In this document: positions 245 to 61,460 of the stretch, piece by piece | Layout: the number at the start of each line of letters is the position of its first letter | Position numbering within the stretch: the stretch's first letter is position 1 | NCBI GenBank assembly: GCA_965218435.1 | Contig: CBDCKW010000009.1 | Coordinates: 1,920,001-1,984,000, forward strand | Direction: 5' to 3' | DNA from: Truepera sp. | GTDB taxonomy: Bacteria > Deinococcota > Deinococci > Deinococcales > Trueperaceae | DNA: 64,000 bases | Notes under the pieces: model-generated | The model's input: the letters and a program-made list of their open reading frames with translations, nothing else | Told to the model about the DNA's origin: nothing | Database searches by the model: none | Translations under genes and position numbers: made by a program

Positions 245-631
245 TCAGCCGCCAAAAATAGCCGCCAAAGACCAACGCGCCGGACCCAATACCGTAAAAA
301 CTTGCTCGCCGTGCTCTCCGATACCGTACGCGACTTTGACGCGCTCACCTACGCTAAGGTGCTCAGTGGGTACTGCGGTGAGCGCCTTGACGACAGCGCC
401 GTCTTTAAGCTGCGCGACGATGATTTTGTTGGTTCCGTCTATATAGCCGATCTTCCCAGTCGTTTCACCCGTTTTCTGAACTTTATGGGTATGTGGCAAC
501 GCTTCAGCGACCCTTTGAACCACAGTTGTTGGCACGATGCCGAAACTGTGTGCAGGACGCAACTGCGCAAAACCTAACCAGACCAAGCCTGCTATACACA
601 GGACGAGCGCGGCAACGAGACTAAAGCGCAT
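245..631 (-). CDS. Hypothetical membrane-anchored/exported protein, last gene of the respiratory operon
   Basis: N-terminal hydrophobic helix followed by a small beta-rich domain; start overlaps the upstream stop (TAATG). Confidence 0.65.
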   Translation of the reverse strand: MRFSLVAALVLCIAGLVWLGFAQLRPAHSFGIVPTTVVQRVAEALPHTHKVQKTGETTGKIGYIDGTNKIIVAQLKDGAVVKALTAVPTEHLSVGERVKVAYGIGEHGEQVFTVLGPARWSLAAIFGG

Positions 632-1038
632 TATGGCGTAGCAGCGGTAACCTGAACAACGCCGATAGGCGTGTTGGTCTGCCGGTTGCTCGGGGCATTT
701 GACGTGTCGTAGCGGTCTTTGACAAAACGGCTGAGGTAAACGTAAGTTCCAGGAACTTCAAAGGTGTAGCTGTATGTTTCACCGGGGTAAAGGAGGCCGG
801 ACTCGAGCGCCGCCGCCCCGTCCGGCAGTTTGACGAGCGTCCCTTCATTTTTTGACTGTGGGTCCGCCGTTACGGTCTGCGGCGTCGTGCTGGTATTTTT
901 GAAGACCACAGTGGTTCCTGCGGTAATACTCAGGTTACCCGGCGTAAAGGGACGCTCGTCGCTGATTTCGACGCCGTAGCTCGTTCGTCCGGCACAGCCC
1001 GCCAGCAGCGCCAGTAACAGAAACAAGGTCGCTTTCAT
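631..1038 (-). CDS. Cupredoxin/plastocyanin-fold lipoprotein lacking type-1 copper ligands
   Basis: Lipobox LAGC; FTPGNLSITAGTTVVFKN and SGLLYPGETYSYTFEVPGTYVY are cupredoxin signatures. Confidence 0.8.
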   Translation of the reverse strand: MKATLFLLLALLAGCAGRTSYGVEISDERPFTPGNLSITAGTTVVFKNTSTTPQTVTADPQSKNEGTLVKLPDGAAALESGLLYPGETYSYTFEVPGTYVYLSRFVKDRYDTSNAPSNRQTNTPIGVVQVTAATP

Positions 1039-1046
1039 CCTTCCCC

Positions 1047-2909
1047 CTAGTCCAGCAGCTCGTTCGGACGGTTGAAATACTCGTCGCGCACTTTGTCACC
1101 GGCCATATACGCCAGCGCCAACAGCGTAGCAGTCGGGTTGGCACCGGGATTCTGCGGGTAGAGGGCCGCGCCTGTCACAAAGACGTTGGGCGTATCCCAC
1201 ACCTGCCCGTACTTGTTCGTCACTGAATTACCGGGGTCGGTCCCCATAATCGCGCCGCCCGTACAGTGCGTGGACTGATACTGATGCACGTTGTAAGGAT
1301 CGAGCGAGCCGGTAAAGTCGATGCGGTCAGGGTTCATCTCTTTGGCAATCTCATTGCAACGCTGAGCCAAAAACTTGTAGAGGTTCTTCTCATTTTCGTG
1401 AAAGTCGAAGGTCAGCCGCAGGAGCGGTTGGCCCCACGCGTCTTTATAGTTGGGGTCTAAGTCGAGATAGTTCTGTTTGTAGGCTTGCACTTCGCCCTGA
1501 ATTCCGACCCCGACGATGCCGTCCCAGTTGCGGCGCATGTTTTCTTTCCAGGCTTGGCCCCACTCGCTCCCCTGGTGGGCCAAACTGCCGACTTCGCTGC
1601 TGATCGTCGCGCCGCCCTGAACATCTTCGGCTTGTCCGCTGGGGCTTTCCGTTGCTGCCGGCGTCCCGGCCTTAAGAGACGGCATACTGATCACCGAAGT
1701 GAGCGGATCGTTCTGACCGCCGCCCGCGTAGATGGACGCCCCACCGATAAAGTTTTGCGCGGAATGGTCGAAGTTATCGGCGTTAAACTCATAGATCAGG
1801 TTTTGAATCACACCGTTGCCCATAAAGGTGTTGAAGCGCCGCCCTTCAAAAATGGCGTTGGCAGGCGTTTTAAGAATCTGGTAGGTATAGTTTTTCCCGA
1901 CCTTGCCTCGGTCGTTGCCGATCCCGTTAGGGTGGGCCTTACTTTTGGACAAGAGCAGCATCCGCACGTTGGTCAGCGTATAACCGGTGACCATCACCAC
2001 ATCGGCGGGTTGGACGTGCTCTTCGCCCGCCTCATCTATATAGGTGACGCCAGTCGCAAGGCCGTCCGCGCCGATGTTGATATGCAAGACCTTGCTGTTG
2101 GGGCGCACGTCCCAATTGCCGGTTTGCAAGGCGACCGGCACGTGCGAGGTCACGGCGCTCGTTTTGGCGTCTACTTCGCAGCCGAAACGGGTACAAAAGC
2201 CGCAGTAGATACAGCCCGAGCGGACGCGTCCCGAAAGGTCTTTATACGCTTCGGACAAAATGCCTGCAGGTTGCGGAAAGGGGTGGTAGCCCAGGTTGCG
2301 GCAGGCGTCGGCGAAGATTTGGGCGTGAACGCTGACCGGGTTGGGGGGTAACGGATAAGGACGTGAGCGCGGCGCTTCAAAGGGATTCCCGCCCGGAACC
2401 TTTTGCCCCGCCAGATTGCCCACCTGCCCGGCGGTACCGATATCGTAGTCTACGGTATCGTAGTAGGGCTCGAGCTCGTCATAGGTCAGCGGCCAATCTT
2501 GAACGGTCATGTTCGCTGGAATCTTATTTTTGCCGTAACGCGCTACGTTATGGCTGTAGTGCTGAAAGTCGGCGGGCAAAAAGCGCCAGAACTGCGCCGT
2601 CCAGTGAACGCTCGCCCCACCGAGGCCGTTTCCCGGCATAAACGACCCGAACTGCCGAATGGGTAACGCGGGCAAGCTGTCGTTGGGTCGCCAGCTCCAG
2701 GTTTCTTTCGCGAGGTCGAACATCATCGCTTTGCGGACGCGGTATCTGAGACCGTCGTGGTTATGGTTGTAGTCCGGGTTGGCCCAGCGCAAGGGGCCTT
2801 GTTCGATCGACACGACTTTGCGCCCCGCCGCCCCGAGTTTCCAGCCCATAATCGCCGCCGTCCATCCTGCGCCAATCGTTACCACGTCAACTTTTTTGTG
2901 TACTGCCAT
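1047..2909 (-). CDS. GMC oxidoreductase, gluconate 2-dehydrogenase flavoprotein (alpha) subunit-like
   Basis: IGAGWTA FAD motif, GNGLGGASVHW, CIYCGFC..FGC Cys cluster, STHCTGG, NPTAT. Confidence 0.9.
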   Translation of the reverse strand: MAVHKKVDVVTIGAGWTAAIMGWKLGAAGRKVVSIEQGPLRWANPDYNHNHDGLRYRVRKAMMFDLAKETWSWRPNDSLPALPIRQFGSFMPGNGLGGASVHWTAQFWRFLPADFQHYSHNVARYGKNKIPANMTVQDWPLTYDELEPYYDTVDYDIGTAGQVGNLAGQKVPGGNPFEAPRSRPYPLPPNPVSVHAQIFADACRNLGYHPFPQPAGILSEAYKDLSGRVRSGCIYCGFCTRFGCEVDAKTSAVTSHVPVALQTGNWDVRPNSKVLHINIGADGLATGVTYIDEAGEEHVQPADVVMVTGYTLTNVRMLLLSKSKAHPNGIGNDRGKVGKNYTYQILKTPANAIFEGRRFNTFMGNGVIQNLIYEFNADNFDHSAQNFIGGASIYAGGGQNDPLTSVISMPSLKAGTPAATESPSGQAEDVQGGATISSEVGSLAHQGSEWGQAWKENMRRNWDGIVGVGIQGEVQAYKQNYLDLDPNYKDAWGQPLLRLTFDFHENEKNLYKFLAQRCNEIAKEMNPDRIDFTGSLDPYNVHQYQSTHCTGGAIMGTDPGNSVTNKYGQVWDTPNVFVTGAALYPQNPGANPTATLLALAYMAGDKVRDEYFNRPNELLD

Positions 2910-2929
2910 CTTTCCCCCTTGGTTCGGAA

Positions 2930-2969
2930 AGAATACAGAATAAATGGGTAATTCTCTATTCTGTATTCT
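2930..2969. repeat. REP-like heptamer-based hairpin (related copies at 30902..30942 and 51637..51696; half copy at 27094..27122)
   Basis: AGAATACAGAATA/TATTCTGTATTCT perfect inverted repeat. Confidence 0.65.
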
Positions 2970-2990
2970 CTAGTCCTGCTAAATCTTTCT

Positions 2991-4034
2991 TTAGTTCGAA
3001 TGCTGCTGATCACGCCCCGACACCGGTAAGATAACCTCGCCGCTAGCCGGTTGCCCCGGATTAAAGTAGTTCAGGTCGGCGATCGCCTGCGGTTTTCGCG
3101 TCGTGCCTTCGGTCTGAATTTCACTCGGCAAATACGCGCGCTGTGCGCCGGGGTAACCCACCAATTTCCAACCGACCAGATCGCGGTTGCCGCCGTAAGC
3201 CGGGTCGGAAAACATCCCTTCGGTGGTGTGACGCCGGAGCGTGTGAAAAAAGCTTTCGGCGCTGAGTTCTTTGTCAAAGGTGGCGATTTTACCGCCCGCC
3301 ATGTCCCCGACGACGCCGTCTTGCTGCGCTTCGCTCAGGTTTGCGAAGTCTTTGCCGAACTGCGCGTTCGCGTAACGGTCGGTTGCCGCGACGCCGATAC
3401 GGTACACGTCTCGAGGGGTCAACATGGACTGGTAACCGTAGCGTTCAATCTGGTCGTGGGGCACCCACATCACTTTGTAGGGACCGTCCGTGTCGGCGGG
3501 TGGTTTATTCCCCGTATAGGTCCTGGCAAAGGGCGGTTCGCGGTAGGTCGGCTCGGGCAGCCCATCTTTGACATTTAAGAAGTTGTCAATGTAGGTGACG
3601 ACCCCCGCCTCCCTCGCGCCGGGGTCATCCGGGGTACCGGGCAAAATGCGAGCGGTCAGCGCCTCGACGGTGCGCGCCTCGTGTGGGGTAAAGACGCGCA
3701 GGATGTTCCGGGGCGGCGGCTCGGTCGGGGTATAGGGTACATCGGGGTACTGCTTGGCCGTCGGCACCTCAGCTGCGGGTAGCTCCCCAGACACGGCGAG
3801 TGGCTCGGCGGTGTCAACGCGCTCACACGCCTCGAGGCTGGCGGCCACCAAGGTTACCCCGGTTAATTTAAGGAAGTCGCGGCGTGAAGGCCCCTTCCGG
3901 CTTAGCTCAAGTTGGGTAGCCACCGGTTTAGCGGCCTTGTCGTTTTGTAGGCTATTTTTTTGTCTATCTTCGGGCACAGTGTCTTGGACGGTGTCTGGAA
4001 TGGCGTGCGCCGCTTTATGAGTACGTCTAAACAT
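2991..4034 (-). CDS. Gluconate 2-dehydrogenase subunit 3 (gamma)-like Tat protein
   Basis: SRRDFLK twin-arginine motif, PGAREAGVVTYID, EGMFSDPAYGGNRDLVGWKLVGYPG; ATG at 4034 follows GGAG. Confidence 0.88.
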   Translation of the reverse strand: MFRRTHKAAHAIPDTVQDTVPEDRQKNSLQNDKAAKPVATQLELSRKGPSRRDFLKLTGVTLVAASLEACERVDTAEPLAVSGELPAAEVPTAKQYPDVPYTPTEPPPRNILRVFTPHEARTVEALTARILPGTPDDPGAREAGVVTYIDNFLNVKDGLPEPTYREPPFARTYTGNKPPADTDGPYKVMWVPHDQIERYGYQSMLTPRDVYRIGVAATDRYANAQFGKDFANLSEAQQDGVVGDMAGGKIATFDKELSAESFFHTLRRHTTEGMFSDPAYGGNRDLVGWKLVGYPGAQRAYLPSEIQTEGTTRKPQAIADLNYFNPGQPASGEVILPVSGRDQQHSN

Positions 4035-4072
4035 CTTTTCTCCTGACTGGCGTAACCAGATCATTTCTGGGG

Positions 4073-4483
4073 CTACTGCAACGAATAGAAATAGGCGGCC
4101 ATATTCGCCGCGTCACTTCTGGTGACGCCCAGGTTCGGCATCGCGTTCCCAGGGTCAACCGCTTGGGGTACCTGAAGCCAGCGGATAAGATTGTCCGGGG
4201 TATTTGAAAGCCTACCGGCAATATACGCACGTTCAGCAAATTGCCCGTCGAGTTCGGGGCCGACCTGTCCTTTGACGTTGTCTATTCCCTGAATCGTGTG
4301 GCACGCGACGCAGCCGTAAGAGGCGAAAGCCGCTGACGCTTGCTCCGGGTCGCCCCCGACGACGGTGTGCGGCGGCGCTTTGGGAATATCGGTTCGCCCT
4401 GAAAGCTTCATGATGGCAATGAGGCCGACTAGCGCGACGATACCCACCAGCACGGTTGACAAAATGCGGTTTTCCCGTCTCAA
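4073..4483 (-). CDS. Membrane-anchored monoheme cytochrome c
   Basis: CVACH, GPEL, distal AMP Met; TTG start overlaps the ctaG stop and follows GAGGTG. Confidence 0.85.
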   Translation of the reverse strand: MRRENRILSTVLVGIVALVGLIAIMKLSGRTDIPKAPPHTVVGGDPEQASAAFASYGCVACHTIQGIDNVKGQVGPELDGQFAERAYIAGRLSNTPDNLIRWLQVPQAVDPGNAMPNLGVTRSDAANMAAYFYSLQ

Positions 4484-5376
4484 GGTCTCACCTCTTGAAC
4501 AGTTTGGGGCTGCGCGACTTGGGGCTGAGCTCTTGGTGCAAAAGCGTGTTGGCGTACCTGCATTCGCGCTTCGACGTCGCGCAGCCAAAGGAGAAAAAAT
4601 ATCCCGGCCAGCACTGTAAACAGAGTCCCCAGCGGCAACCACATCAGCAGGCCGGCGAGCTGTTGGTCACCTAACGCCGACCGGCCCAGCGCCTCGGTGG
4701 TTCTTGCATACGCGCCGTACCAGGGCGTCGGCGAAAAGGTGATCAGCGCCCCCAATGCGCCGCCCTGCAACGACGCGGCGAAGAGGTACAAAATCGCTGC
4801 GCCGCGCCCCAAACGCCGGTGACCGACAGGTTGGAGCAGCGTCCACCAAAAGAGCAATGAGGTGGCTAAAAAGGTGAGGTGCTCGAGCCCGTGCACCACG
4901 TTTGACCGCAGCGCGGCTTCGTAGAGTCCCGGTGTGTGCCAGACCCAAAACGTAGCCACGAACAGCGTCCAGGCGAGTACCGGGTTGGTCAGGGTATGAA
5001 CAACGTTTCTCAGAGCTTTTGCCCGTAACCAACCCTGCGCGACGGCTTTTCTCGCACTGGTAGGTAAAGCCCATAATCCGGCCACGACCGGCAAACTCAG
5101 CACCAGCAGCGGAGCCGCGACGATCATGATGAGCAGGTGCTGCACCATATGCGCGGAAAATAAGAGGCCGCTCAGCGCCTCGAGCGGCGAAATGAGCGCC
5201 ACCCCGAGAACTAAAAACGCACCGACACCGAGCAGCGCCCGCCACCGCTGAATGCCGCGCCCCACCCCGGCACGCCCCCAAAGCCTGAGCACGCCGCAGG
5301 TATAGAGCGCGAGCCCGAACAGCAAGCCGACGACGACAGCAGGCTCGAGCGTCCATAAACTCGTGACTCCTTTCAT
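4480..5376 (-). CDS. ctaG: Cytochrome c oxidase assembly factor, caa3-type CtaG
   Basis: FSAHMVQHLL, WHTPGLY, EHLTF and DQQLAGLLMW motifs. Confidence 0.9.
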   Translation of the reverse strand: MKGVTSLWTLEPAVVVGLLFGLALYTCGVLRLWGRAGVGRGIQRWRALLGVGAFLVLGVALISPLEALSGLLFSAHMVQHLLIMIVAAPLLVLSLPVVAGLWALPTSARKAVAQGWLRAKALRNVVHTLTNPVLAWTLFVATFWVWHTPGLYEAALRSNVVHGLEHLTFLATSLLFWWTLLQPVGHRRLGRGAAILYLFAASLQGGALGALITFSPTPWYGAYARTTEALGRSALGDQQLAGLLMWLPLGTLFTVLAGIFFLLWLRDVEARMQVRQHAFAPRAQPQVAQPQTVQEVRP

Positions 5377-5388
5377 TTCTCCCTCACC

Positions 5389-5814
5389 TCAGCGTATCCG
5401 GCACGGGTCTAAGAGCAGCATCGCTGCGCCCGTCGTCAAAATCAGAGCGAAGAAGGCGATACTCGTGACAAAACCGGCGTAGGTCATAAACGGGGTGACG
5501 CCTTCGTCGTGCCGACCGACCACCGCCGGGTCATCGCCCCGAGCCCTGCGCCAGTGCGTAAAACTGTTTACTCCGGCCCAGAGCGTCAATACAGTAGCGG
5601 CGAGTGAGATGATATAGAAGGGCAACCGTGAGCCGCCACAGACCGACGGCACGAACGCGTACCCGAGCAGCAGCTGCACCGCCCACGCCAAAGGACCGGC
5701 GAAAAAGCCGAACCAGAAGACGAAATAGTCTTTGGCCTCGTGGTAGCTGCCGCGGTAGTTAGCTTCACCGGCAGTGGCGGTTTGCCCGGTCTGTTTTTGT
5801 GTAGCCTGTTTCAC
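5389..5814 (-). CDS. Three-TM membrane protein, possible oxidase accessory subunit
   Basis: GPLAWAVQLLLGY..C; GTG start overlaps the subunit III stop. Confidence 0.65.
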   Translation of the reverse strand: MKQATQKQTGQTATAGEANYRGSYHEAKDYFVFWFGFFAGPLAWAVQLLLGYAFVPSVCGGSRLPFYIISLAATVLTLWAGVNSFTHWRRARGDDPAVVGRHDEGVTPFMTYAGFVTSIAFFALILTTGAAMLLLDPCRIR

Positions 5815-6476
5815 TACCGGGTCCCCAAAAAATGCGGCGACAAGTAGAGCGACGTCCAGACGAACAGCCACACGCCGTCTACAAAGTGCCAGTAGAGCGA
5901 GACATTTGAAAAACTCAGGTGGCGCTTGGGCGTAAAGTAGCCGAGCATAGCCCATAAGAGCATCACGCTCAGCAAGAGCACCCCGACCAACACGTGTAGC
6001 CCGTGCAACCCGGTAATGGTATAGAAGAGCGCCCCGTACGCGCCGTCTTGCGGCCTAAAATCAAGCTTGGTGTATTCATAAACTTGAATCCCTAAAAAGA
6101 CGACGCCGAGCAGGACGGTCAGCAGCAGACCCAGCTTGAAGTTACCCAGATGACCGCTTTTTAAGCGGCGCTCAGCCCAGATAAGAGCGGCGCTGCTCGA
6201 GACTAGGACGATCGTCGCCACCACCGGCAAGACAACCTCGGGCAGGTCTATCTCGTTAGGCGGCCAGACCGGGTTGTTCGAGCGCAAGTAAAAGTAACCG
6301 GACAAGAGGCAGGCGAAAAACACGGCTTCGGTCAGGATGAGAAGGGCGATCCCCCAACGGCTCGTTACCCGGCTACCCGACACCTGCGGCAGATCGAGGA
6401 GCGACTCACGGGAGATGTCGGCAAACGGGTTGGGTACCTGACCCAGTTGCCCTGCTTGATGATCCGTACCGCTCAC
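5814..6476 (-). CDS. ctaE: Cytochrome c oxidase subunit III
   Basis: ILTEAVFF, FYTITGLHGLHV, YWHFVDGVW. Confidence 0.92.
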   Translation of the reverse strand: MSGTDHQAGQLGQVPNPFADISRESLLDLPQVSGSRVTSRWGIALLILTEAVFFACLLSGYFYLRSNNPVWPPNEIDLPEVVLPVVATIVLVSSSAALIWAERRLKSGHLGNFKLGLLLTVLLGVVFLGIQVYEYTKLDFRPQDGAYGALFYTITGLHGLHVLVGVLLLSVMLLWAMLGYFTPKRHLSFSNVSLYWHFVDGVWLFVWTSLYLSPHFLGTR

Positions 6477-8416
6477 CTTTGCGCCTCCGCCCCTTCAAAC
6501 CTGTCCTGACGGCTGTTTTGCCGCGCGGCCTGCTGTTCACTGCGGTGCGGCCACAGCCACCACAGCGAAAAGACGAATACACCTGCCGCGCCGACACCGG
6601 TAAGCCACCACAGATGTAACAGCGTTCCCGCAAAAAAGACGAACATCGCGCCCGCGACGAAAAAGGGTGACGCGGATTCAGGTGGGATACGGATAATCTC
6701 TTCGGGCCGGGCTTCTAACAGGGTCGTGCCGATAGTTTCTCGTAAAAAGGGGTCGGTCGGGTCAACCTGGGCGGTGTCGGCACGCTGCGCTTCGGCCTCG
6801 ACATTACGGCGCTCCCAGAGCGGAGCCATGCTCGTGACCGGCGGGATGGTACGGAAGTTGTACGGCGGCGGCGGTGATGAAGTGGCCCACTCGAGCGTCG
6901 CCCCGTTCCAAGGGTTGTCCTCCGCGTCACCGCGTTTAGTCAGGCTCCAGTACACGTTGACGATAAAAAGAATCACGCCCGCCGCGATGGTGTACGCCCC
7001 AAGCGTCGAGATCAAATTGAGGTTACCCCAGCCCATTTCGGGCAGGTAGGTATAGATGCGGCGCGGCATCCCGAGCAGTCCCAACAGGTGCTGCACAAAA
7101 AAAGCGACGTTAAAGCCGACGAACATCAGCCAAAAGTTCCATTTGCCCAAGGTGTCGTTTAACATTTTGCCGGTTATTTTAGGAAACCAGTAGTAAAACG
7201 CGCCGAAGAGCGGAAACACCATCCCACCGACTAAGGTATAGTGAAAGTGCGCCACGATAAAGTAAGTGTCGGTCACCTGCCGGTCAAACGAGATCACCGG
7301 AAACATCACGCCCGTGACCCCGCCGATCACGAATAAGACGATAAACCCGGCGGCGAAGAGCAGCGGCGTTTTGAAGTTGGGATTCCCGCTTAAGATCGTC
7401 GCGATCCAGGCGAATACCTGAATGCCTGCAGGCAGCGCGATAATGACGCTCGCCGCTGCGAAAAATGAACCGGACAAGGGCGAGATGCCGGTCGCAAACA
7501 TGTGGTGCGCCCACACGCCGAAGCCGATCATGCCGGTTAAGACCGTCGACATAGCGACGAGGTTATAGGCGACCAGAGGACGACGTGAAAAGGTTTGGAT
7601 AATTTCCGATACGAAGCCGAACGCCGGTAAGACGATGATGTATACGTCCGGGTGACCGAACACCCAAAAGAGGTGCTGCCACAAGAGCGGCGAGCCGCCC
7701 CCGGCAGGGTCAAAAAACTTCAGGTCGAAGGTGCGCTCGAGCCACAAAAACACGTTGGCGGTGTTGAGCGCCGGAATCGCAAACAGCACCGCAAACGAGG
7801 TGACTAAAATAGACCAGCAGAAGATCGGGATGCGGTTGATGGACATCCCCGGCGCACGCATCCGGAAGATCGTCACGATGAAGTTGATCGCGCCCGCCGT
7901 GGTTGCAAAGCCTAAAAAGAGGAGCCCTAAGACGTAGTAGTCGATCCCGAGTCCCGGCGTGTACTTGCTGGTGGTGTAGGGCACGTAAGCAAACCAGCCG
8001 CCGTTCGGTACGCGGCCGACTAAGAGGCTCGAGTAGATAAACCCGGCAGAAAACAGATAGACCCAGTAGCCAAAGGCGTTCAGCCGCGGAAACGCCATAT
8101 CGCGCGCACCGATTAAAAGCGGGACCAAAAAGTTGCCGAAACCGAACAAGATCGGCGTGGCGAAGAAAAAAATCATCATGGTGCCGTGCATGGTAAAGTA
8201 CTCGTTATATGACGCCGGGCTTAAAAAGCTGTTGCCGGGTCTGATAAGCTGCGTACGGATCATCATGGCGTCGGTACCGGCGAGCAAAAAGACCGCGAAC
8301 GCCGTAACGATGTAACGAATCCCGATGGTTTTATGGTCAACGGTTGTCAACCAGCCGAAGAGCCCGCCGCCCTCCCAGATACTTTTTAATTCCCGACTCG
8401 GCAGTGACTGAGCCAT
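6473..8416 (-). CDS. ctaD: Heme-copper oxidase subunit I (A-family-like, atypical proton-channel residues)
   Basis: TVDHK, TMHGT, RDMAFPRLN, GHPDVY, WAHHMF, AHFHY, GMPRR. Confidence 0.95.
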   Translation of the reverse strand: MAQSLPSRELKSIWEGGGLFGWLTTVDHKTIGIRYIVTAFAVFLLAGTDAMMIRTQLIRPGNSFLSPASYNEYFTMHGTMMIFFFATPILFGFGNFLVPLLIGARDMAFPRLNAFGYWVYLFSAGFIYSSLLVGRVPNGGWFAYVPYTTSKYTPGLGIDYYVLGLLFLGFATTAGAINFIVTIFRMRAPGMSINRIPIFCWSILVTSFAVLFAIPALNTANVFLWLERTFDLKFFDPAGGGSPLLWQHLFWVFGHPDVYIIVLPAFGFVSEIIQTFSRRPLVAYNLVAMSTVLTGMIGFGVWAHHMFATGISPLSGSFFAAASVIIALPAGIQVFAWIATILSGNPNFKTPLLFAAGFIVLFVIGGVTGVMFPVISFDRQVTDTYFIVAHFHYTLVGGMVFPLFGAFYYWFPKITGKMLNDTLGKWNFWLMFVGFNVAFFVQHLLGLLGMPRRIYTYLPEMGWGNLNLISTLGAYTIAAGVILFIVNVYWSLTKRGDAEDNPWNGATLEWATSSPPPPYNFRTIPPVTSMAPLWERRNVEAEAQRADTAQVDPTDPFLRETIGTTLLEARPEEIIRIPPESASPFFVAGAMFVFFAGTLLHLWWLTGVGAAGVFVFSLWWLWPHRSEQQAARQNSRQDRFEGAEAQR

Positions 8417-8426
8417 CTTATCCCCT

Positions 8427-9431
8427 TTACTCGAGCGTCTTTAGGTACGCTAAAAGCGCCTGTAAATCGTGTGATTCTAAATACATAGGCGGCATCTTGT
8501 TCCCTGGTTTGACCGTCTGCGGATTGACGATCCACCCGGCTAAATTGCCTTCAGTATTCGGGAGCGCCCCCGCGCCGATGGTGCGGCGGCTCGCGAGGTG
8601 CGTCAAGTCAGGACCCAGACGGCTCGAGGCGTTCGTACCTTTAATCGCGTGGCAGTACACGCACGCCGACCCTAAAAAGACCTGTTGCCCCCGCAACGCT
8701 TCGCCGCCTTTGGGAACAGGCGCGGCGAGTTGCTGCTGTGAGACCCACGCCTGATACTTTTGGGGCGCGTCGGCCACTACCCAAAACGCCATCTTCGCGT
8801 GCTGTAAGCCGCAGTATTCACCGCACTGCCCGCGAAACGCACCCGGCTGGTCGGCCTCTATAGAGATGGTATTGGTCTGCCCCGGGATCGTATCGATTTT
8901 GCCGTTCAGCTCCGGTACCCAAAACGAGTGAATCACATCGGCCGAAGTCACTTTGATCTGCACAGGTTCCCCCGCCGGGATATGCAGTTCGTTGGCCGTG
9001 GTAATGCCCTCTTGCGGATAGATGACCTCCCACCACCAGCGGTGACCGATCACCTGGATGACGCGCGTCGGAGCCTGAGCGCGAGCGGTGATCACGTTTT
9101 CCGTATAGATGTTAAAACCCATCAGCGTGCCTAACACGGCAATGGGAAAGGCGGCCCCCAAAAGCCCCACAAACCACAGCAGCCCCCGCTCTCGGTCCGA
9201 ATGCAGTTGTGGGTCAGTTGATGCGTCTCGGCGTTTTCTAAAAAGTGCGACGAGGAGCAGCACTGTAACTAACACCACGACAAAACTGGCGACCGAAAAA
9301 AGGACCCACCACCAGGTATCTATATACCTGCTGATCGGTCCCTGAGGATTAAGGGCGGACTGCGTGCGGGCAGCGCAGGTGCTGGCCAAAGCGCCGACAC
9401 TAACAGCTAAGCCGACGTTTAGGCGCTTCAC
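8427..9431 (-). CDS. ctaC: Cytochrome c oxidase subunit II with fused cytochrome c (caa3-type)
   Basis: CuA ligands DVIHSFW and CGEYCGLQHAKM; C-terminal CVYCH...KMP. Confidence 0.93.
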   Translation of the reverse strand: MKRLNVGLAVSVGALASTCAARTQSALNPQGPISRYIDTWWWVLFSVASFVVVLVTVLLLVALFRKRRDASTDPQLHSDRERGLLWFVGLLGAAFPIAVLGTLMGFNIYTENVITARAQAPTRVIQVIGHRWWWEVIYPQEGITTANELHIPAGEPVQIKVTSADVIHSFWVPELNGKIDTIPGQTNTISIEADQPGAFRGQCGEYCGLQHAKMAFWVVADAPQKYQAWVSQQQLAAPVPKGGEALRGQQVFLGSACVYCHAIKGTNASSRLGPDLTHLASRRTIGAGALPNTEGNLAGWIVNPQTVKPGNKMPPMYLESHDLQALLAYLKTLE

Positions 9432-9993
9432 CGCCCGTCCTGTCTAGGTAACCCTCGAGCCGGTGGGCTCACAGCTCCGTCCCGGAAAATAGACCCGGTT
9501 TTACGGGCAGCCAACTTTTAGAACGGATCTTGCTAAGACAATCAGCACAACTTTTACTTATTATGTGTACTGCAGCTACTTGGTTGATCACTTTACACCT
9601 CAGCGGCGTCATTAAATGCCGTACAGCTATGTAGTTCGTCGCACCTCGAGACGAGCGGCTGACTGGGTCAGTTGGCAGCGTAGCAAGACAGACAAAAGTG
9701 CTCACAACGCAAAAGCAAGCACCGCGTTGTCGGCACCTTGACGATATTCATTTGCCACCCCCAAATAAAGTGTTGCAAATTCAGCGTGTGCTGAAGCTCC
9801 TATTATGCGAACGCTTTGGCCGGGATGTCAACACCGTAGTTGTTGGATGAGGAGGGTAAAGCTGTCCCTAGACACGACCTTAGTGCGCGTGCTAAAGCGG
9901 AGATACGCGGACAAAAATCCAGCTATCTGGCAGATAGCGGCAGAGCGAAAAAGGCTAGAAGTCCGAAGATGAGTTGTTAAGTTACCAGTTCGT

Positions 9994-23641: not shown

Positions 23642-24706
23642 TTGATGCCTATGCTCTCTCCCGCTGACCTCTACTCGGTCGGCGCAGGTCGCCCCGCGTA
23701 CACCCTGCTCGACGTGCGTGCGCCTGTCGAGGTCGCAGCGGGTGCCTTACCCGGTGCCGTGCCCCTGCCAATTTTGTCCGACGAAGAGCGGCACTTGGTC
23801 GGTTTGCGGTACAAAGAGACGGGGCAAGAGGCCGCGATAACTTTGGGTTACGCGCTCACCGAGTCGCACCTACCGGGGCGTATCGAGGCGTGGCGGGCCG
23901 TAGTAGCACAGGGGCCGACGGCGGTCACCTGCTGGCGCGGCGGACTCCGCAGCAAGCTCGCCGCAGAGTTTATTGGAGACGACCGCGTTCCCCGCGTTGA
24001 GGGTGGGTATAAGGCGATTCGCGCCCATCTAATACGCGAACTAGCGCCGTCGCTGGCGCGGTATGAGAGCATCGTTGTCGGTGGGCTGACGGGTTCAGGT
24101 AAAACAGCGTTGTTAGAGAAGTTGCGAGGAACCCCAAACTTGCGGGTGCTCGATCTGGAGCATGAAGCCCGCCATAGGGGGAGCGCGTTCGGGCGGCTCG
24201 CCGAACCGCAGCCTGCACAAGCGACGTTTGAAAACAGCGTTGCGACGCAACTTTTGCTAGGTAATGAACAGAGATTGGTGCTCGAGGACGAATCTCGCAC
24301 TATCGGCCGGATTGAGCTACCTGACCCGCTATATGAGGTGGTGCAAGCCTCGCCCGTGGTTTTGGTCGAAGAGCCTTTAGAAAACCGCGTCGCACGGATT
24401 CACCGGGATTATGTGCTTTCTTTGAGCCGCACACTCGGCGTTTCCGAAACGCGGCGCTATTTGAGCGGGAGCTTGTTACGCCTGAAAAAACGGCTCTCCG
24501 GCGCGGTGACTGACGCGGCACTCGGGAGCTTAGCGGACGCCGAACACTCCGGTCAGTGGACGCAAGTAGACGCGCACCGAGGTTGGATTACGCCACTGCT
24601 CGAGCTTTACTACGACCCGCTCTACCGCAAAGGACTCAAAAATTTAGGACGCCCGGTGCGCTTTGCGGGCGATTTGGAGGCGTGTTACACATGGTTGACA
24701 CAGTAA
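23642..24706 (+). CDS. mnmH: tRNA 2-selenouridine(34) synthase
   Basis: Rhodanese DVRAPVE and CWRGGLRS, P-loop GLTGSGKT, HRGSAFG, EDESRTIG, YYDPLY. Confidence 0.93.
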   Translation: MMPMLSPADLYSVGAGRPAYTLLDVRAPVEVAAGALPGAVPLPILSDEERHLVGLRYKETGQEAAITLGYALTESHLPGRIEAWRAVVAQGPTAVTCWRGGLRSKLAAEFIGDDRVPRVEGGYKAIRAHLIRELAPSLARYESIVVGGLTGSGKTALLEKLRGTPNLRVLDLEHEARHRGSAFGRLAEPQPAQATFENSVATQLLLGNEQRLVLEDESRTIGRIELPDPLYEVVQASPVVLVEEPLENRVARIHRDYVLSLSRTLGVSETRRYLSGSLLRLKKRLSGAVTDAALGSLADAEHSGQWTQVDAHRGWITPLLELYYDPLYRKGLKNLGRPVRFAGDLEACYTWLTQ

Positions 24707-25776
24707 ACAAAAAAGCAGATAGAACTGTAGACAAAACGGTAAATACTCCTATCAAACTTACGCAAACCGTTAAAAAAGGTGGCTGCGCTGCGAAAATCGC
24801 CGCTGGGACGCTTTCCGAGTTGCTGCAAACACTCCCTCGTCAGAGTCACCCCGACCTGCTCGTCGGTACGGACTTTTTAGATGACGCCGCCGTCTGGCGC
24901 GTCAACGACCAGCAGGTGATGGTGCAGACCCTCGACTTTTTTACACCCATTTTGGACGACGCTTATGACTTCGGCGCGGTGGCTGCCGCGAACGCTCTAT
25001 CCGACGTGTTTGCGATGGGCGCGGCTCCGGTTACGGCGTTGACGATTCTGGCGTATCCCCTAGACACCTTGCCGCCCGACATACTGCGCGAGCTGATGGC
25101 CGGCGCAGTTGAAAAGGTCAATGAAGCCGGGGCGTGTCTCGTTGGCGGTCACTCGATTGACGACGACACCCTCAAACTCGGGTTTAGCGTGACGGGATTG
25201 GCGCACCCGGACCAGCTCTGGAGCAACCGGGGCGCACGTGAAGGCGACACACTCATCTTGACCAAAGCCGTCGGCACCGGCACACTGACGGGCGCACTTA
25301 AAAACGGTGAGCTGGGCTATGACGATATTGCCGAAGCGATTTCTTCGATGAAGACGTTGAATAACTTGGCGTTGCCAAACGAGCTGCACAGCGCCGTTCG
25401 CGCGGCGACCGACGTGACAGGCTTCGGCATTTTGGGACACGCACTGCATCTGGCGCAGGGCGGGGGCGTTACCCTCAACTTGTCAGCACAGGCCGTCCCC
25501 CTCTTAGAACACGCCGCCGACACCTTAGCCAAAATCCTGACCAAAGCCCACCGGAGCAACACCGGCTACGTGCAGGCCCACACAAGTGGACGTGAGCGCA
25601 TCTCGGAAAGTACGTGGTGGGCGCTGACCGACCCGCAAACGTCAGGTGGATTGCTGCTCGCCGTTTCACCTGAACAAGCTGACGAGTTGTTGAACTTTAT
25701 CCAGCCTAAGTTTCCCAGGGCTACTGTGATTGGCCGAGTTGAGAAGCGAGGAGAAAGGGCGCTCGAGGTCGCCTAG
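24691..25776 (+). CDS. selD: Selenide, water dikinase (Cys form)
   Basis: GGCAAK, DDAAV, QTLDFFTP, NALSDVFAMG, DPQTSGGLL; GGAGG precedes ATG 24691. Confidence 0.95.
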   Translation: MVDTVNKKADRTVDKTVNTPIKLTQTVKKGGCAAKIAAGTLSELLQTLPRQSHPDLLVGTDFLDDAAVWRVNDQQVMVQTLDFFTPILDDAYDFGAVAAANALSDVFAMGAAPVTALTILAYPLDTLPPDILRELMAGAVEKVNEAGACLVGGHSIDDDTLKLGFSVTGLAHPDQLWSNRGAREGDTLILTKAVGTGTLTGALKNGELGYDDIAEAISSMKTLNNLALPNELHSAVRAATDVTGFGILGHALHLAQGGGVTLNLSAQAVPLLEHAADTLAKILTKAHRSNTGYVQAHTSGRERISESTWWALTDPQTSGGLLLAVSPEQADELLNFIQPKFPRATVIGRVEKRGERALEVA

Positions 25777-51747: not shown

Positions 51748-53055
51748 TTAGGCAATGTCGGCGAGCGCCTGCCCCAACAGCTCACACCCCGTCGCCATGT
51801 CTTCCGCTGAGACGTTGAGCTGCGGCGCAATCCGGTTGACGTTGCTGTAACGCCCGCCTTTACCGATGAGCAGGCCCCGTTTCCGCGCTACTACGACCAA
51901 CGCGTTCGCTCGAGCCGCGTCCGGGGTTTTCGTTCCCGGCTCGACCATCTCAAACGCTTGCATCAGTCCCATGCCGCGTACATCCCCGATAAAGTCGTAG
52001 CGTTCGCCCTGTTCTTCCATAAAGGTGCGGAGGCTCGAGCCTCGCATCTCTGCGTTCTCCCAGAGCTTGTGCTTTTCAATATATGAGATCGTCGCGTATG
52101 CCTGCGCCATCGAGACCGGATTCCCGCCGTAGGTTGAAAGCGTTAACCCACTCAGCGACTCGGCGACTTCCGGTGTCATCACCGTACACCCGACCGGCGC
52201 ACCGTTGGCAATCCCTTTAGCAAAGGTCATGATGTCCGGCTCGACGCCCCAGTGCTCAATCCCGCACCAATACTGCCCGGTCCGCCCCCAAGCCGTCTGC
52301 ACCTCATCAATGATCAGCACGCCGCCCGCTGCTTTGACGAGTGGCAAGATGCGCTTGAAATAGTCTTTCGGCACGACTTGGAACCCGCCGACGCCTTGAA
52401 TCGGCTCGGCCATAAACGCGGCGATATTGCCGTCCGTGCAAGTAGCTAGAAAATCCTCGAGGTCTTCGACCAAAAAGTCTAAATACGCGTCTTCGCTCAG
52501 CCCCTCGGGGCGGCGGTACATGTTTGGGCTACGGACGTGCTTAATGGTGCCGTCGTAAACGCCGCCGAGCTTCCAGTTCGCGTGCGCGGTCATCCCCATC
52601 ATGGCGCTGCTCCGGCCCGAATAGGCGTGGCGCAGGGCGATGATGTCGGTGTTACCGGTGTAAACGCGGGCCGCCATAATCGCGGTTTCGTCGGCTTCAG
52701 TGCCCGAGTTGGTAAAAAACGAATGTTGCAGGCGTCCGGGCGTAATTTCAGCAATTTTTTCGGCGACTTTGAGCGTGATTTCGTTGATGTATAGGGTGCT
52801 CGTGTGCCCCGTCTTTTTCATCTGCTCATAGGTAGCCTCAACTACCTCGTCGTTACAGTGACCGACCGAGACGGTCAGGATGCCGCCGAAAAAGTCCAGG
52901 TAGCGTGTCCCCTCCACGTCCCAAAGGTACTGGTTTTTGGCGTGATCTACGGCGATAGGGTCGTCACCGTAGTAGAGCATGTTGGTCAGGCTGGGCACGA
53001 GGTATTTTTGCTGGCGCTCTCTCAAGTCTTGAGTTTTGCTGGCGGTTGAAGTCAT
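51748..53055 (-). CDS. Class III aminotransferase (AGXT2 / beta-alanine aminotransferase-like)
   Basis: YLDFFGGI, EPIQGVGG, DEVQTAWGRTG, FAKG; pyrimidine-catabolism context. Confidence 0.88.
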   Translation of the reverse strand: MTSTASKTQDLRERQQKYLVPSLTNMLYYGDDPIAVDHAKNQYLWDVEGTRYLDFFGGILTVSVGHCNDEVVEATYEQMKKTGHTSTLYINEITLKVAEKIAEITPGRLQHSFFTNSGTEADETAIMAARVYTGNTDIIALRHAYSGRSSAMMGMTAHANWKLGGVYDGTIKHVRSPNMYRRPEGLSEDAYLDFLVEDLEDFLATCTDGNIAAFMAEPIQGVGGFQVVPKDYFKRILPLVKAAGGVLIIDEVQTAWGRTGQYWCGIEHWGVEPDIMTFAKGIANGAPVGCTVMTPEVAESLSGLTLSTYGGNPVSMAQAYATISYIEKHKLWENAEMRGSSLRTFMEEQGERYDFIGDVRGMGLMQAFEMVEPGTKTPDAARANALVVVARKRGLLIGKGGRYSNVNRIAPQLNVSAEDMATGCELLGQALADIA

Positions 53056-53168
53056 CGGGGCCTCCTAAAAATTTGGTCTTGAGCCTATAGAGGATACTGT
53101 AGCACTTGACTCAAACGGAAGTTCCCATTCTTTTTGCATTCGGTGAGTAGCTATAATCTAAGCAGATT

Positions 53169-53558
53169 ATGATGGACTCATTACTTTCAACTACAATCAG
53201 CAGCCTCGTTGAACTGCTCGCCGGGAAGGTACATAAATCTGAAGAACTCGCAGAAGTAGACGATCTTGAACTTATCAGTGACGAAGCAAAACAGCAAAAA
53301 CTTGAACTACAAGTTGCTTTTGAACAGGCTAAGGTGGCACAAGAAATTGCAATCGCCGAAAGGATTCAGAATGCTAACGAAGTAGTTCTAGAAGAGTATT
53401 ACGAATATACTGCGAAGGGACAGCTAGGACTTGCGACAGATGACAATAGCGTTTCCATAGGGGCTTCAGGGGAGGGCCGACGGGTTACTAAACGCATCTA
53501 TCGCTTTATAGGCAACTCAAATTCGAAAGAGATTAAAGAAACGAGGGAGAATTCTTGA
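53169..53558 (+). CDS. Hypothetical protein (AT-rich)
   Basis: 129-aa ORF with TATAAT upstream. Confidence 0.65.
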   Translation: MMDSLLSTTISSLVELLAGKVHKSEELAEVDDLELISDEAKQQKLELQVAFEQAKVAQEIAIAERIQNANEVVLEEYYEYTAKGQLGLATDDNSVSIGASGEGRRVTKRIYRFIGNSNSKEIKETRENS

Positions 53559-53620
53559 TTGTAAGAAAGGACTGTACAAAAAGGATGCACCGGCTCGAGC
53601 GTGCCAGCTAAACGGCCTTT

Positions 53621-53881
53621 ATGAGTGAGAAAGCTGACGACACCCTGCGCGACGATTACGGCTTTTCAAACGGTGTAAGGGGCAAGTACCGCCACTTTAG
53701 CGACCAGCCCCGCACCTTTCGGATTCGTCAGCCAGACGGGTCGGTCATAGAAAAAACAGTCGAGGCTCCTGTCACACTAGACCCGGACGTGCGCCGTTAT
53801 TTTCCGGACTCGGAAGCCGTAAACAGAGCCTTACGCGGACTGATCGAGCTGATACCTGAAGAAAACCGCAAGTCTTCTTAA
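53621..53881 (+). CDS. Orphan BrnA-like antitoxin
   Basis: LRDDYGFS.GVRGKY, LDPDV..YFPDSEAVNRALR; resembles 39980..40198. Confidence 0.75.
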   Translation: MSEKADDTLRDDYGFSNGVRGKYRHFSDQPRTFRIRQPDGSVIEKTVEAPVTLDPDVRRYFPDSEAVNRALRGLIELIPEENRKSS

Positions 53882-53891
53882 AAGCTAGAAA

Positions 53892-53918
53892 GCCCCTGCT
53901 CGAGCCCAGAGCAGGGGC
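53892..53918. terminator. Hairpin between convergent genes
   Basis: GCCCCTGCTC/GAGCAGGGGC stem. Confidence 0.65.
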
Positions 53919-53951
53919 CACCAACCCAAAACGCCGTAAAGCCCGTAAAAC

Positions 53952-55007
53952 CTACCGCGCTACAGCGTCATACACACTTTCGTCTACCACATCCCCATAC
54001 GCCACCGGCTGCGCGAGTAAACCTACTTGATTGAGCAGCGCCACGGAACGGTTAAAGGCGTCTTCGTTCAACGCCCCCACACTGGTGTCAGCTTCCGGTT
54101 TGACGAGTTCAGCAACGCGGGCCATCTGCCAGGTTTGGTGAATCTGCGGGCTCTGGGTGCTACCCGACCCGGCGCAGGTATCGCCGCACGACTCTAAAAC
54201 GATACTTACCGCTTCTTCTTGATTGGCAACGGCGTACTCCCAGCCCTTAATCGTCGCGCGTAAAAAGCGTTCGGCGACTTCGTGACCGGAAACGCCCGAG
54301 CCTTTGAAGTCGGGGTTTTGTAAGAGTTCGGGCGTGGTAAAGATTAGGTCCTCGAGCAAAGCCGCGTCAACGTCGGCGGGGTCCAAGACGTTAAGCGTGT
54401 CGAGCGGGTAGCCGAGCCCGACGATTTGGTCGAGTTCGTTGTAGGTCATCGCCGAGGCCACTTCGACCTCATCGGGAAATACCAGTGACGGGTCAAAGGC
54501 GTATACGACAGCACTCACGTCCGGGTTCGTCACCGTCGGGTCAAGATCAGATGTGAGGTCTTCAGCAGCAAAGACTGCCTGTGCGACGAACTCATTACCG
54601 AAACCCCAGACGCCCACGGTGCGGCCCGCCAGGTCAGGGAGCGCCTCAATCCCGGAGTCTTTGAGCGCGACCATCCGGTAGCCCGACTTCTGATAAATCT
54701 GCGCGATCTGCACCACGTTTAAGCCTTGTTCGCGCTGCACCAGCATGTTAGCGATCCAGTCGGTGCCGAAGTCGGCGTTGCCCGAAGCGACCTGCACGGT
54801 CGGGTTGACGTTGCCGCCGTCTAACACGGTGACGTTTAAGCCTTCGTCCTCATAAAAGCCCTTGGACTGCGCGACAAAGTAACCGGCAAACTGCGCCTGC
54901 GGAAACCATTTGGACTGAAAGGTCACGTCAATCATGTTTTGGGCCGACACCAAACTTACGAGCAGCAGCACACCTAAACCGACACCTAAACCGAGCATTC
55001 GCTTCAT
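53952..55007 (-). CDS. NMT1/THI5-like ABC solute-binding protein (probably pyrimidine)
   Basis: KWFPQAQFAGY, WGFGNE, AMTYNE; GGAGG ribosome-binding site. Confidence 0.88.
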   Translation of the reverse strand: MKRMLGLGVGLGVLLLVSLVSAQNMIDVTFQSKWFPQAQFAGYFVAQSKGFYEDEGLNVTVLDGGNVNPTVQVASGNADFGTDWIANMLVQREQGLNVVQIAQIYQKSGYRMVALKDSGIEALPDLAGRTVGVWGFGNEFVAQAVFAAEDLTSDLDPTVTNPDVSAVVYAFDPSLVFPDEVEVASAMTYNELDQIVGLGYPLDTLNVLDPADVDAALLEDLIFTTPELLQNPDFKGSGVSGHEVAERFLRATIKGWEYAVANQEEAVSIVLESCGDTCAGSGSTQSPQIHQTWQMARVAELVKPEADTSVGALNEDAFNRSVALLNQVGLLAQPVAYGDVVDESVYDAVAR

Positions 55008-55175
55008 CTCGCCTCCTTGGATACGTTCTGTGAACGTCCTCACAGTGTATCGGGATAGACGTACAGGTTGCAATCAGTGAGGCTCAAAGCGACCATTTTG
55101 ATAGCCAAGGTTGAAAGGCGTCAAGTGAAAAGGTACGCTCGAGCCACCCTGTATAAAACAGCCGTAAAGCCGACT

Positions 55176-56102
55176 TTAGTTCTCCCGAGCCGACGCGTGC
55201 CAGCTCGTCGTGCGCCGCTCCGCCCAGGCGACGAGATTATAGACGGTGACTGAAACGAGGCTCGAGACGAAAATGGCGGCGAACACCACGTCATACGCCC
55301 CTCGCCGTGCTGACAGCGAGATGCGCTGCCCCAACCCTTCCGGCGGCCCCGGAATCAGAAACTCGGCGACGATGACGCTGACAATAGATAAGACCACCGC
55401 GAGCCTGAGGGCGTTAAAGAGATACGGCGCAGCGTTGGGCAAGCGGAGTTTGACGAACACTTCCCACGGTTTCGCGGCGTAAGCGCGGAGGAGCTCGAGC
55501 TTCAGGGCGTCCACCGACAACAGCCCCTGCACCGTATTGAGCAGCACCGGAAAAAACGTGACGATGACGACCACCGCTGCCTTCGACTCCCAATCGACGC
55601 CGAAAGCCCGCCCCAGCACCGGAGCCAACCCGACAATCGGCACTGCGCCGAACGCCGCCGCTAAGGGCAAAAACCCACGTTGCAAAAAGACGTTGCTCGC
55701 CACCCCGATACCTGCCACGACGCCCGCCGTAAACCCGATGACAAAACCCAGCAAAATCTCTTTGACGAACGTGACATAGGCGTCACGAAGCAAAACCGGA
55801 AACGTGGCTGAGAGCGATACCCAAACATCCGTTACGCTCGGAAAGATACCTTTGGGCACGCGAAAGCCTACAACTAAACCTTGCCAGAGCAGCAGTAAGA
55901 CAAACGGCACCGCTGCCGGAAGCAAGAGCTGTCCCAGACGCGAGCGTCCGCCTTGACCTGCCGCGATACAGGCAAGCAGCAAAAAGCCCCAGAACCTGAG
56001 CCAATAGAGAGGAGTCACGTCACCCATGACTGTCCAGAAGGCTCCGGCGAGGCCCAACGCTGTTAGCAAGACTGCAATCAACACCTTCACGAACGTTCCC
56101 AC
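55176..56102 (-). CDS. NitT/TauT-type ABC permease
   Basis: VPIVGLAP, FFP, KLRLPNAAPYLF. Confidence 0.9.
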   Translation of the reverse strand: MGTFVKVLIAVLLTALGLAGAFWTVMGDVTPLYWLRFWGFLLLACIAAGQGGRSRLGQLLLPAAVPFVLLLLWQGLVVGFRVPKGIFPSVTDVWVSLSATFPVLLRDAYVTFVKEILLGFVIGFTAGVVAGIGVASNVFLQRGFLPLAAAFGAVPIVGLAPVLGRAFGVDWESKAAVVVIVTFFPVLLNTVQGLLSVDALKLELLRAYAAKPWEVFVKLRLPNAAPYLFNALRLAVVLSIVSVIVAEFLIPGPPEGLGQRISLSARRGAYDVVFAAIFVSSLVSVTVYNLVAWAERRTTSWHASAREN

Positions 56103-57928: not shown

Positions 57929-57929
57929 G

Positions 57930-58742: not shown

Positions 58743-58743
58743 G

Positions 58744-60132: not shown

Positions 60133-60156
60133 ACGTTCCTCCTTGCTTCTACGAGT

Positions 60157-61445: not shown

Positions 61446-61460
61446 AATCTCTTACCACCT

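Follow-up and report, generated by a model that had tools for sequence, protein, structure and literature searches.

Related Respiratory Operons

Operons that join a dehydrogenase to a terminal oxidase have been published for enzymes dependent on pyrroloquinoline quinone (PQQ), namely the XoxF3 operon (Voutsinos et al. 2024, PMC10875860) and the cytochrome c oxidase (COX) operon of type a-II (Degli Esposti et al. 2014, PMC4013037). Here we discuss a row of ten genes at positions 245 to 9431 of a 64,000-nucleotide stretch of the Truepera sp. genome (assembly GCA_965218435.1, contig CBDCKW010000009.1, positions 1,920,001 to 1,984,000), referred to below as the window, in which the genes of a cytochrome c oxidase are followed by those of a flavoprotein dehydrogenase of the GMC family. 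On balance, the sequences make it probable that the row encodes a short extracytoplasmic chain, in which a quinone-bypassing dehydrogenase would pass electrons through heme c to CuA and on to an O2 reductase that would operate with the D proton channel alone.

The published operons resemble the row in that an exported dehydrogenase stands beside CoxI-III, CtaG and a cytochrome c. According to the passages that describe them, XoxF3 operons contain a protein of 110-130 aa between CoxIII and CtaG, where the window has a 141 aa protein with three transmembrane helices (3TM protein), and COX1 of type a-II is 630-670 aa long with a C-terminal extension, like the CtaD of the window, which has 647 aa and a PF00115 match that ends at residue 475. 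In addition, the PQQ-linked oxidases that were compared fall in the same clade as the window enzyme, which lacks the K-channel Lys (K-less, as opposed to K-intact). The donor is different, being a pair of GMC flavoprotein and gamma subunit rather than the PQQ methanol dehydrogenase of XoxF3, which is not in the row; two PQQ-dehydrogenase queries matched one other place in the genome. The PQQ-linked forms carry Trp at the position of a key Glu (one has Glu), whereas the window enzyme has Asp. Furthermore, a 2021 table (PMC8239418) lists subtypes a and a-II with a K-channel "yes", as opposed to the window oxidase, and the K-channel tabulation of that source has no row with Gln at K354; the passages on XoxF3 and a-II make no mention of proton channels (PMC10875860, PMC4013037).

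On the donor side, the row shares with the gluconate 2-dehydrogenase of Pantoea (gamma-alpha-triheme) a PF13618 subunit with a twin-arginine translocation (Tat) signal and the GMC His, Cys-cluster and His/Asn motifs. Classical enzymes of this type reach the quinone through a triheme cytochrome subunit. The Pantoea operons, which are annotated records and not assayed enzymes, encode such a subunit with three CxxCH motifs, whereas the window has none and its gamma subunit is probably a lipoprotein. Like the window, Campylobacter jejuni has a two-component system, Cj0414/Cj0415, a periplasmic gluconate dehydrogenase with co-transcribed genes and a predicted electron transfer to cytochrome c (PMC4178425); the likeness is one of description alone, and the passage on this pair describes no oxidase with it.

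The rus operon of Acidithiobacillus combines a donor side, a cytochrome c, a cupredoxin-like protein and an aa3 oxidase (PMC2754497), and that oxidase, from which the tables of PMC8239418 also record the K-channel Lys and the Glu of subunit II as absent, receives a downhill flow of electrons to O2 through cytochromes. It differs in its iron donor, the acid habitat, the replacement of Lys by a hydrophobic residue, the HPEVY motif that is kept and two extra N-terminal helices; it is listed as another clade and is not on the tree of this analysis. Each part of the row therefore has precedents, in the PQQ-oxidase operons, the two-subunit gluconate dehydrogenase and the K-channel loss in other clades, and further background is available (PMC6431628, PMC6682613, PMC11214002). 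In the literature searched, which left most subscription papers outside, no account of HPDVY/Gln oxidases or of a GMC-oxidase operon was found, nor any of Glu-to-Asp oxidase mutants. The predicted oxidase misses two defining features of the A1 type, and the predicted dehydrogenase misses the triheme feature of the classical gluconate 2-dehydrogenase.

An A-Type Oxidase without the K-Channel

Subunit I of the window (CtaD/CoxA; 6473..8416, minus strand like all genes of the row; TIGR02891 above the cut-off) has its nearest solved match in a mycobacterial enzyme (7RH5, E = 1.7e-154). Alignment to solved oxidases places intact metal ligands at H77, H255, H304, H305, H390 and H392 and the cross-link Tyr at residue 259, and the Arg pair is kept. 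Subunit II (CtaC/CoxB; 8427..9431; TIGR02866 at 177 bits with a cut-off of 148, PF00116 and PF00034) carries the CuA motif at residues 168 and 203-214 and a fused C-terminal heme c, with CxxCH at 257. The set is completed by a short subunit III (CtaE/CoxC; 5814..6476; PF00510, E = 1e-40) and a copper assembly factor of the Caa3_CtaG family (4480..5376; PF09678, E = 3e-54). The D-channel entry residues N95, D106, N113 and N178 are present in CtaD, so that the six His, the cross-link Tyr, the Arg pair, the D-channel Asp and Asn, and CuA are all shared with the A1-type caa3/aa3 oxidases.

The differences from the A1 type lie in the HPEVY motif, which reads HPDVY in the window, with Asp257 in place of the usual Glu, and in the K-channel. 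A constant offset of 21 maps the CtaD sites to Paracoccus K354, T351, S357, S291 and Y280 (K-channel numbering, including K354, T351 and E78 of subunit II, as used in the PMC8239418 supplement). At these positions Lys is replaced by Gln333, Thr by Ala330 and Asn/Ser by Ala336, Ser270 and Tyr259 of the K-channel region are retained, and helix 2 of CtaC is without the K-channel entry Glu. Because the residues are gone from both subunits, the sequences argue for a genuine loss of the K-channel in this oxidase. The original prediction had called the oxidase atypical; the word holds for the K-channel loss and the Glu-to-Asp exchange, although the prediction had left it undefined and had missed both.

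Among the best 120 of 7990 homologues found with query residues 200-420, Asp257 and Gln333 each occur in 119, a set that is enriched for Asp/Gln because the query region contains those motifs. In the same 120, D106 is kept in all 111 ungapped rows and N113 in all 112, and an acid stands at position 257 in 119. The conservation of D106, N113 and the acid suggests that the D-channel works in this subclade.

The K-Less Clade

A wider set of 134 sequences contains 65 without the K-channel Lys, of which 47 have Gln, 10 have Ala and the rest Ser, Gly or others in its place; position 257 of these 65 is occupied by Glu in 28, by Trp in 20, by Asp in 16 and by Leu in 1. No such variation is seen in the 60 A1-type rows with an intact K-channel, which are uniformly Glu, Thr, Lys and Asn at the compared sites. 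The entry Glu of subunit II follows the same division, being found in 56 of 56 K-intact loci versus 0 of 52 K-less ones, where one of the 52 rows is a gap and the helix aligns loosely. The K-less rows form one side of a branch with a FastTree support of 0.71 (134 rows), and the same split obtained an SH-aLRT value of 99 in a quick tree of 48 of the 134 rows that included the trait columns. One sequence, P0117, which lies among the Trp forms, was excluded from the Asp group.

These residue counts bear on a reading in which the wiring is the same and little or no energy is conserved, with the chemical protons taken from outside and the enzyme acting as a sink for electrons that serves detoxification, O2 removal or an incomplete oxidation. 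The K-channel is lost across two subunits, the Trp or Leu found at the Glu position in part of the clade would close the exit of the D-channel too, and the genome is already provided with two oxidases of the K-intact kind as well as an alternative complex III. In the near homologues of the window enzyme, however, D106, N113 and the acid at 257 are kept, and we regard an energetically idle sink as unlikely.

The K-less CtaD is under purifying selection (nonsynonymous divergence, dN, of 0.06-0.36 versus synonymous divergence, dS, of 0.62-1.42 in six K-less pairs), and the clade spans several phyla. Together with the invariant metal ligands and an assembly factor that the operon has kept for itself, this makes it extremely improbable that the oxidase is an inactive paralogue in decay, which might otherwise be supposed from the loss of residues essential in model enzymes and from the patchy distribution: at E<=1e-60, the GMC query found no match in any of five same-genus genomes, 30 matching genomes among 364 of its own phylum, and 16 among 401 sampled from the phylum of genome G364.

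Cultured organisms are represented by Phototrophicus methaneseepsis, whose genome contains both an Asp/Gln subunit I (P0009) and a related GMC protein (P0193), a co-occurrence that does not imply adjacency. Trp/Ala and Glu/Gln forms are also plasmid-borne, in Mesorhizobium sp. INR15 and Rhizobium leguminosarum WSM1325. In the K-less oxidase of the R. leguminosarum plasmid pR132503 (L167), the Asp of the D-channel entry is replaced by Asn; the genes ahead of it encode a cytochrome c and an FdhF/YdeP oxidoreductase. In four actinomycetotal loci (L030, L040, L041 and L049) the K-less oxidase is followed by diheme cytochrome c, Rieske and cytochrome b genes resembling QcrCAB; some members of the clade are thus probably fed from quinol. 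In the loci L150 and L160, CtaG is fused ahead of subunit II.

Conservation of the Operon and Its Electron Donors

The order of the core eight genes (CtaC-c, CtaD, CtaE, 3TM, CtaG, cytochrome c, Tat gamma and GMC) recurs in related genomes and in Chloroflexota, and gene order is also conserved in L034, L043, L045 and L083. When loci were recruited by a GMC protein of >=52% identity and had enough upstream DNA, the oxidase was directly upstream in 10 of 13, always with Gln for Lys. Three of these encode Asp/Gln forms with subunits I and III fused (G152, G073 and G082) and seven Glu/Gln forms (G293, G298, G299, G301, G326, L137 and L140). Left out of the 13 were L135, L138, L141, L146 and L168, which lie on short contigs, and G334; the gamma sequences of L146 and L137 are identical as printed. 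The linkage of dehydrogenase and oxidase, on which the original prediction depended, is therefore conserved among close relatives.

Distant GMC proteins are mostly without an oxidase nearby (5 of 5 at 38-45% identity, G331 excepted, and 14 of 15 regions in another set), and none adjoins the GMC genes on a Thermus plasmid and two Pantoea plasmids. Nevertheless, some of them do adjoin K-less oxidases, namely in G331 (44%), in G409 (41%, with ctaD in pieces) and in G020 and G329 (33-34%), the last two coming with a multiheme cytochrome and divergent from the oxidase genes. These oxidase-linked proteins are on different branches of the GMC tree, from which G409 is absent.

The linkage was also counted from the oxidase side, in 80 loci recruited by CtaD (36 K-less and 44 K-intact), with partners named by Pfam; a gene counted as linked if it lay within 6.5 kb in the same orientation. 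By this measure, 18 of the 36 K-less loci versus none of the 44 K-intact ones had a GMC or PQQ dehydrogenase, and the counts were 24 versus 0 when Rieske/cytochrome b was admitted as a third partner and 26 versus 0 for an extra c-type cytochrome. In loci with 6 kb on both sides, GMC or PQQ partners occurred in 8 of 17 K-less versus 0 of 18 K-intact loci, and GMC alone in 2 of 17 versus 0 of 18, which is not significant. The kin among these loci are not independent, L032 and L033 being near copies. In one of the K-intact loci, L097, a gene for a related GMC protein lies on the opposite strand at a distance of about 8 kb.

The Dehydrogenase and Its Cytochrome

The GMC flavoprotein (1047..2909; GMC_oxred_C) is of the gluconate 2-dehydrogenase alpha type and without a signal peptide. 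Its residues H102, C233/C236/C239/C244, H548 and N591 are invariant in 42 of 42 aligned sequences, and the Cys cluster aligns with that of the solved glucose and fructose dehydrogenases that depend on flavin adenine dinucleotide (FAD) (6A2U and 7W2J). We take the cluster to be the iron-sulfur (Fe-S) ligands, H102 to be the FAD His, and H548 and N591 to be the catalytic His and Asn. The protein is 39-42% identical to the Pantoea alpha subunits and falls in a clade of its own apart from the Pantoea type (tree support 1.0), so that gluconate is a lead and not a result.

The gamma (small) subunit (2991..4034; PF13618) has a Tat signal followed by a lipoprotein-type Cys. All 20 gamma proteins compared have a twin-arginine motif, and in 13 of them, including that of the window, the signal ends with a Cys, which suggests that gamma is lipid-anchored; such a Cys can, by this prediction, replace the triheme cytochrome as an anchor. 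The row has no triheme cytochrome, a scan of the whole genome for CxxCH brought up no protein with three hemes, and a two-heme query (45-47% identical to the Pantoea triheme subunits) gave only short single-domain matches in the genome, which bears out the earlier statement that no triheme subunit is encoded. Nor is there a quinone-binding subunit in the row.

The remaining redox protein of the donor side is a membrane-anchored monoheme class I cytochrome c (4073..4483; CxxCH and distal Met), which shares 36-44% identity with the heme c domains found in the three subunit II proteins of the genome. Its gene follows the oxidase rather than the GMC gene; it is missing from some GMC operons and found in K-less loci without GMC (L025, L027 and L051). 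Co-folding of the GMC protein, gamma, heme and the cytochrome c gave a score of 0.02 and a mark of 0.32 and was not used as evidence.

The Proposed Electron Transfer Chain

In the chain that we favour, gamma would carry the folded flavoprotein out through the Tat pathway and anchor it at the outer face of the membrane, where the GMC enzyme would oxidise a sugar acid, sugar or polyol. Electrons would pass from FAD to the Fe-S cluster, enter the monoheme cytochrome c, the heme c of subunit II or both, and move on via CuA and heme a to heme a3-CuB, bypassing menaquinone and alternative complex III. O2 would be reduced to water with protons supplied by the D-channel alone, with Asp257 replacing the usual Glu, probably at a lower rate or pumping yield than in the two K-intact oxidases of the genome. 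The K-less oxidase would be the constant part of the module, and the donor would be swapped by lineage among GMC, PQQ dehydrogenase and Rieske/cytochrome b. The quinone-bypassing chain had already been put forward in the original prediction, and it is strengthened by the conserved linkage, the row without a quinone-binding subunit and the anchor Cys of gamma; the cupredoxin that was part of the row cannot, however, serve it as a blue-copper carrier.

Several observations weigh against this chain. Among the 13 close GMC loci, three (L136, L139 and G011) have no oxidase nearby, G011 keeping only CtaG near the GMC gene and a K-less oxidase on another contig. The closest CtaD locus (L025) has no GMC gene within 10 kb, and GMC alone accompanies just 4 of the 36 K-less oxidases versus 0 of the 44 K-intact ones; one of the four, L083, comes from an unpublished genome (G366) and holds one of two ligand-bearing cupredoxins. 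The donor contrast is moreover overstated, because the partner queries came from K-less loci and because of the kinship among loci. The separate cytochrome c may serve assembly, given that L034 and L170 do without it and that 5 of 27 loci (L026, L029, L101, L140 and L149) encode it as a fusion with CtaG. On the oxidase side, inspection of the K-channel helices for a compensating charged residue brought out none, the K-less O2 reductases with functional data belong to acidophiles of a different clade, and the K362M variant of Rhodobacter sphaeroides is described as fully blocked in oxidase activity (PMC7601700).

A rival reading is that the genes are co-regulated without dedicated wiring, the dehydrogenase delivering its electrons to a shared cytochrome c pool or to menaquinone and the cytochrome c of the operon helping CtaG to assemble the oxidase. 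The CtaG-cytochrome c fusions and the close GMC relatives without an oxidase agree with this, as do other c-type carriers in the genome, one of which is encoded just past the operon end (C9:1919469-1919891). At least three separate GMC lineages as well as PQQ enzymes nevertheless adjoin K-less oxidases, with none found co-oriented with a K-intact one, and the row is without a quinone-binding subunit; we therefore hold co-regulation alone to be rather unlikely.

The objection from K362M is the principal one, and its principal answer lies with the iron oxidisers, which reduce O2 with K-less oxidases: these serve an Fe-oxidising, O2-reducing chain via periplasmic cytochromes, as the relevant passages report (PMC2754497; for the oxidases, see bioRxiv 2020.03.01.968255 and the tables of PMC8239418). 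The same mutants suggest a further reading, in which the oxidase is mainly a D-channel-only heme-copper peroxidase acting on H2O2, with the dehydrogenase supplying reductant from an outside substrate. K-channel mutants keep a D-channel-only peroxidase activity and lose the oxidase activity (PMC7601700, in a passage citing Vygodina 1998), a pattern that the window enzyme matches, with its K-channel gone and its D-channel entry kept. Yet no natural example was found in the literature searched, the K-less enzymes of the iron oxidisers reduce O2, the Trp forms of the clade misfit a D-channel-dependent peroxidase, and there are no peroxide-stress genes among 94 annotated neighbours. A peroxidase is accordingly a distinctly unlikely identity for this enzyme. 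Going beyond the single operon, it is conceivable, if speculative and unlikely, that the K-less clade is a separate class, a terminal for swappable outside-facing dehydrogenases that runs a D-channel-only cycle and, in the boldest form of the idea, a natural H2O2-driven proton-pumping peroxidase.

Other Genes and Signals of the Row

All ten open reading frames were confirmed on the minus strand and every frame is open, by which a frameshifted or broken operon was ruled out. From the end of ctaC to the last gene, the intergenic distances are 10, -4, -1, 12, -4, 38, 81, 8 and -1 bases; these positions, with the family matches, agree with the ten co-oriented, tightly packed genes that had been predicted. 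The likely starts, with ribosome-binding sites judged by eye, are probably 4483 for the cytochrome c, 4034 for gamma and 5814 for the 3TM gene. A sigma-70-like promoter candidate (9802..9831, minus strand, 11/12 consensus match) lies 370 bases upstream of ctaC and is a weak lead, from a scan that was at chance level (3 sites observed versus 3.7 expected). The terminator scan of the row was uninformative. Within the 81-base gap between gamma and GMC (window 2910-2990), an AT-rich inverted repeat was seen by eye, which could attenuate or stabilise the transcript. GC and third-position GC (GC3) of nine of the ten genes resemble those of native genes, so there is no compositional sign of recent transfer, and the patchy distribution of the row is compatible with transfer or loss alike.

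The 3TM protein (5389..5814), with two nearly invariant Cys, occupies the slot that belongs to a different subunit-IV-type gene in K-intact operons, presumably of the CtaF/CyoD type, and is a probable substitute for subunit IV. Its model has three helices (pLDDT 80); hhalign gave a probability of 0.3% for a relation to the K-intact subunit IV family, comparisons with Pfam, PDB sequences and profiles gave no match, and the fold search returned only generic three-helix bundles, the best (Z 10.2) being a designed protein. In an atlas search, it matched only unnamed clusters (0.91-0.93), as did the last gene of the row (under 0.9).

The cupredoxin-fold lipoprotein (631..1038) matches Copper-bind PF00127 weakly (E = 3.5e-5), which upholds the fold that had been predicted, whereas the type-1 copper ligands are absent: Gln52 replaces His, Ser103 replaces Cys, and the loop is without His/Met. 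A role as a blue-copper carrier was ruled out by these missing ligands. The four ligands (His, Cys, His and Met) are kept in L043 and L083, and the Cys is lost in the window, L135, L141, L143, L144, L145 and L170. Behind their ligand-less cupredoxin, L144 and L145 have a gene for a beta-propeller of the PQQ type and may thus carry both donor types. The last gene (245..631) encodes a small exported or membrane-anchored protein without a Pfam or NCBIfam match. The tenth frame had been named as an exported protein and is indeed present, although it is not conserved in related operons: no match was found in the mapped related loci, and a search of 1.84 billion representatives gave five matches, with one full-length relative (78%).

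Genome Context

Elsewhere, the genome encodes a K-intact A-type oxidase with HPEVY (C9:68028-73835), a second with YSHPAVY (C9:3175117-3180874) accompanied by heme A synthesis genes that were read by eye, and an alternative complex III-type cluster with pentaheme cytochrome and NrfD (C9:2763283-2772151). Three Pfam models found neither a bc1-type cytochrome b nor a bd oxidase in the assembly, which is 100% complete. Given this complement, the operon in the window is an accessory respiratory branch. Named homologues and a caa3 locus resembling that of Thermus indicate that the host probably belongs to the Deinococcota.

At the first of these loci, C9:68825-69985 encodes a subunit-IV-type membrane domain fused to cytochrome c. 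The gene just left of the window (C9:1919469-1919891) encodes a small exported monoheme cytochrome c and converges on the operon end; in its heme domain it is similar to the cytochrome domains at the N-termini of two larger proteins, one encoded at C9:1850768-1852819, which is the PQQ dehydrogenase match, and the other at C9:3259020-3260714. Further along the window and judged by eye, two adjacent genes at 23642-25776 resemble those for a tRNA 2-selenouridine synthase and a selenophosphate synthetase, and the genes at 51748-64000 resemble a cluster for reductive pyrimidine degradation that includes an ABC transporter, presumably interrupted at about 60157-61445 by small toxin-antitoxin-like and low-GC genes.

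Significance

It has long been asked why oxidases of the A family require two proton channels, and the work has relied mostly on dead point mutants. The row described here is a natural test of whether respiration runs on one proton channel, as a conserved clade with cultured carriers has lost the K-channel from subunits I and II alike, varies between Glu, Asp and Trp at the key Glu position and brings its own electron donor. The GMC clade adds a putative dehydrogenase of possible biosensor interest. Because pipelines annotate the K-less enzymes as ordinary cytochrome c oxidases, genome-based energy models may misjudge the organisms that carry them.

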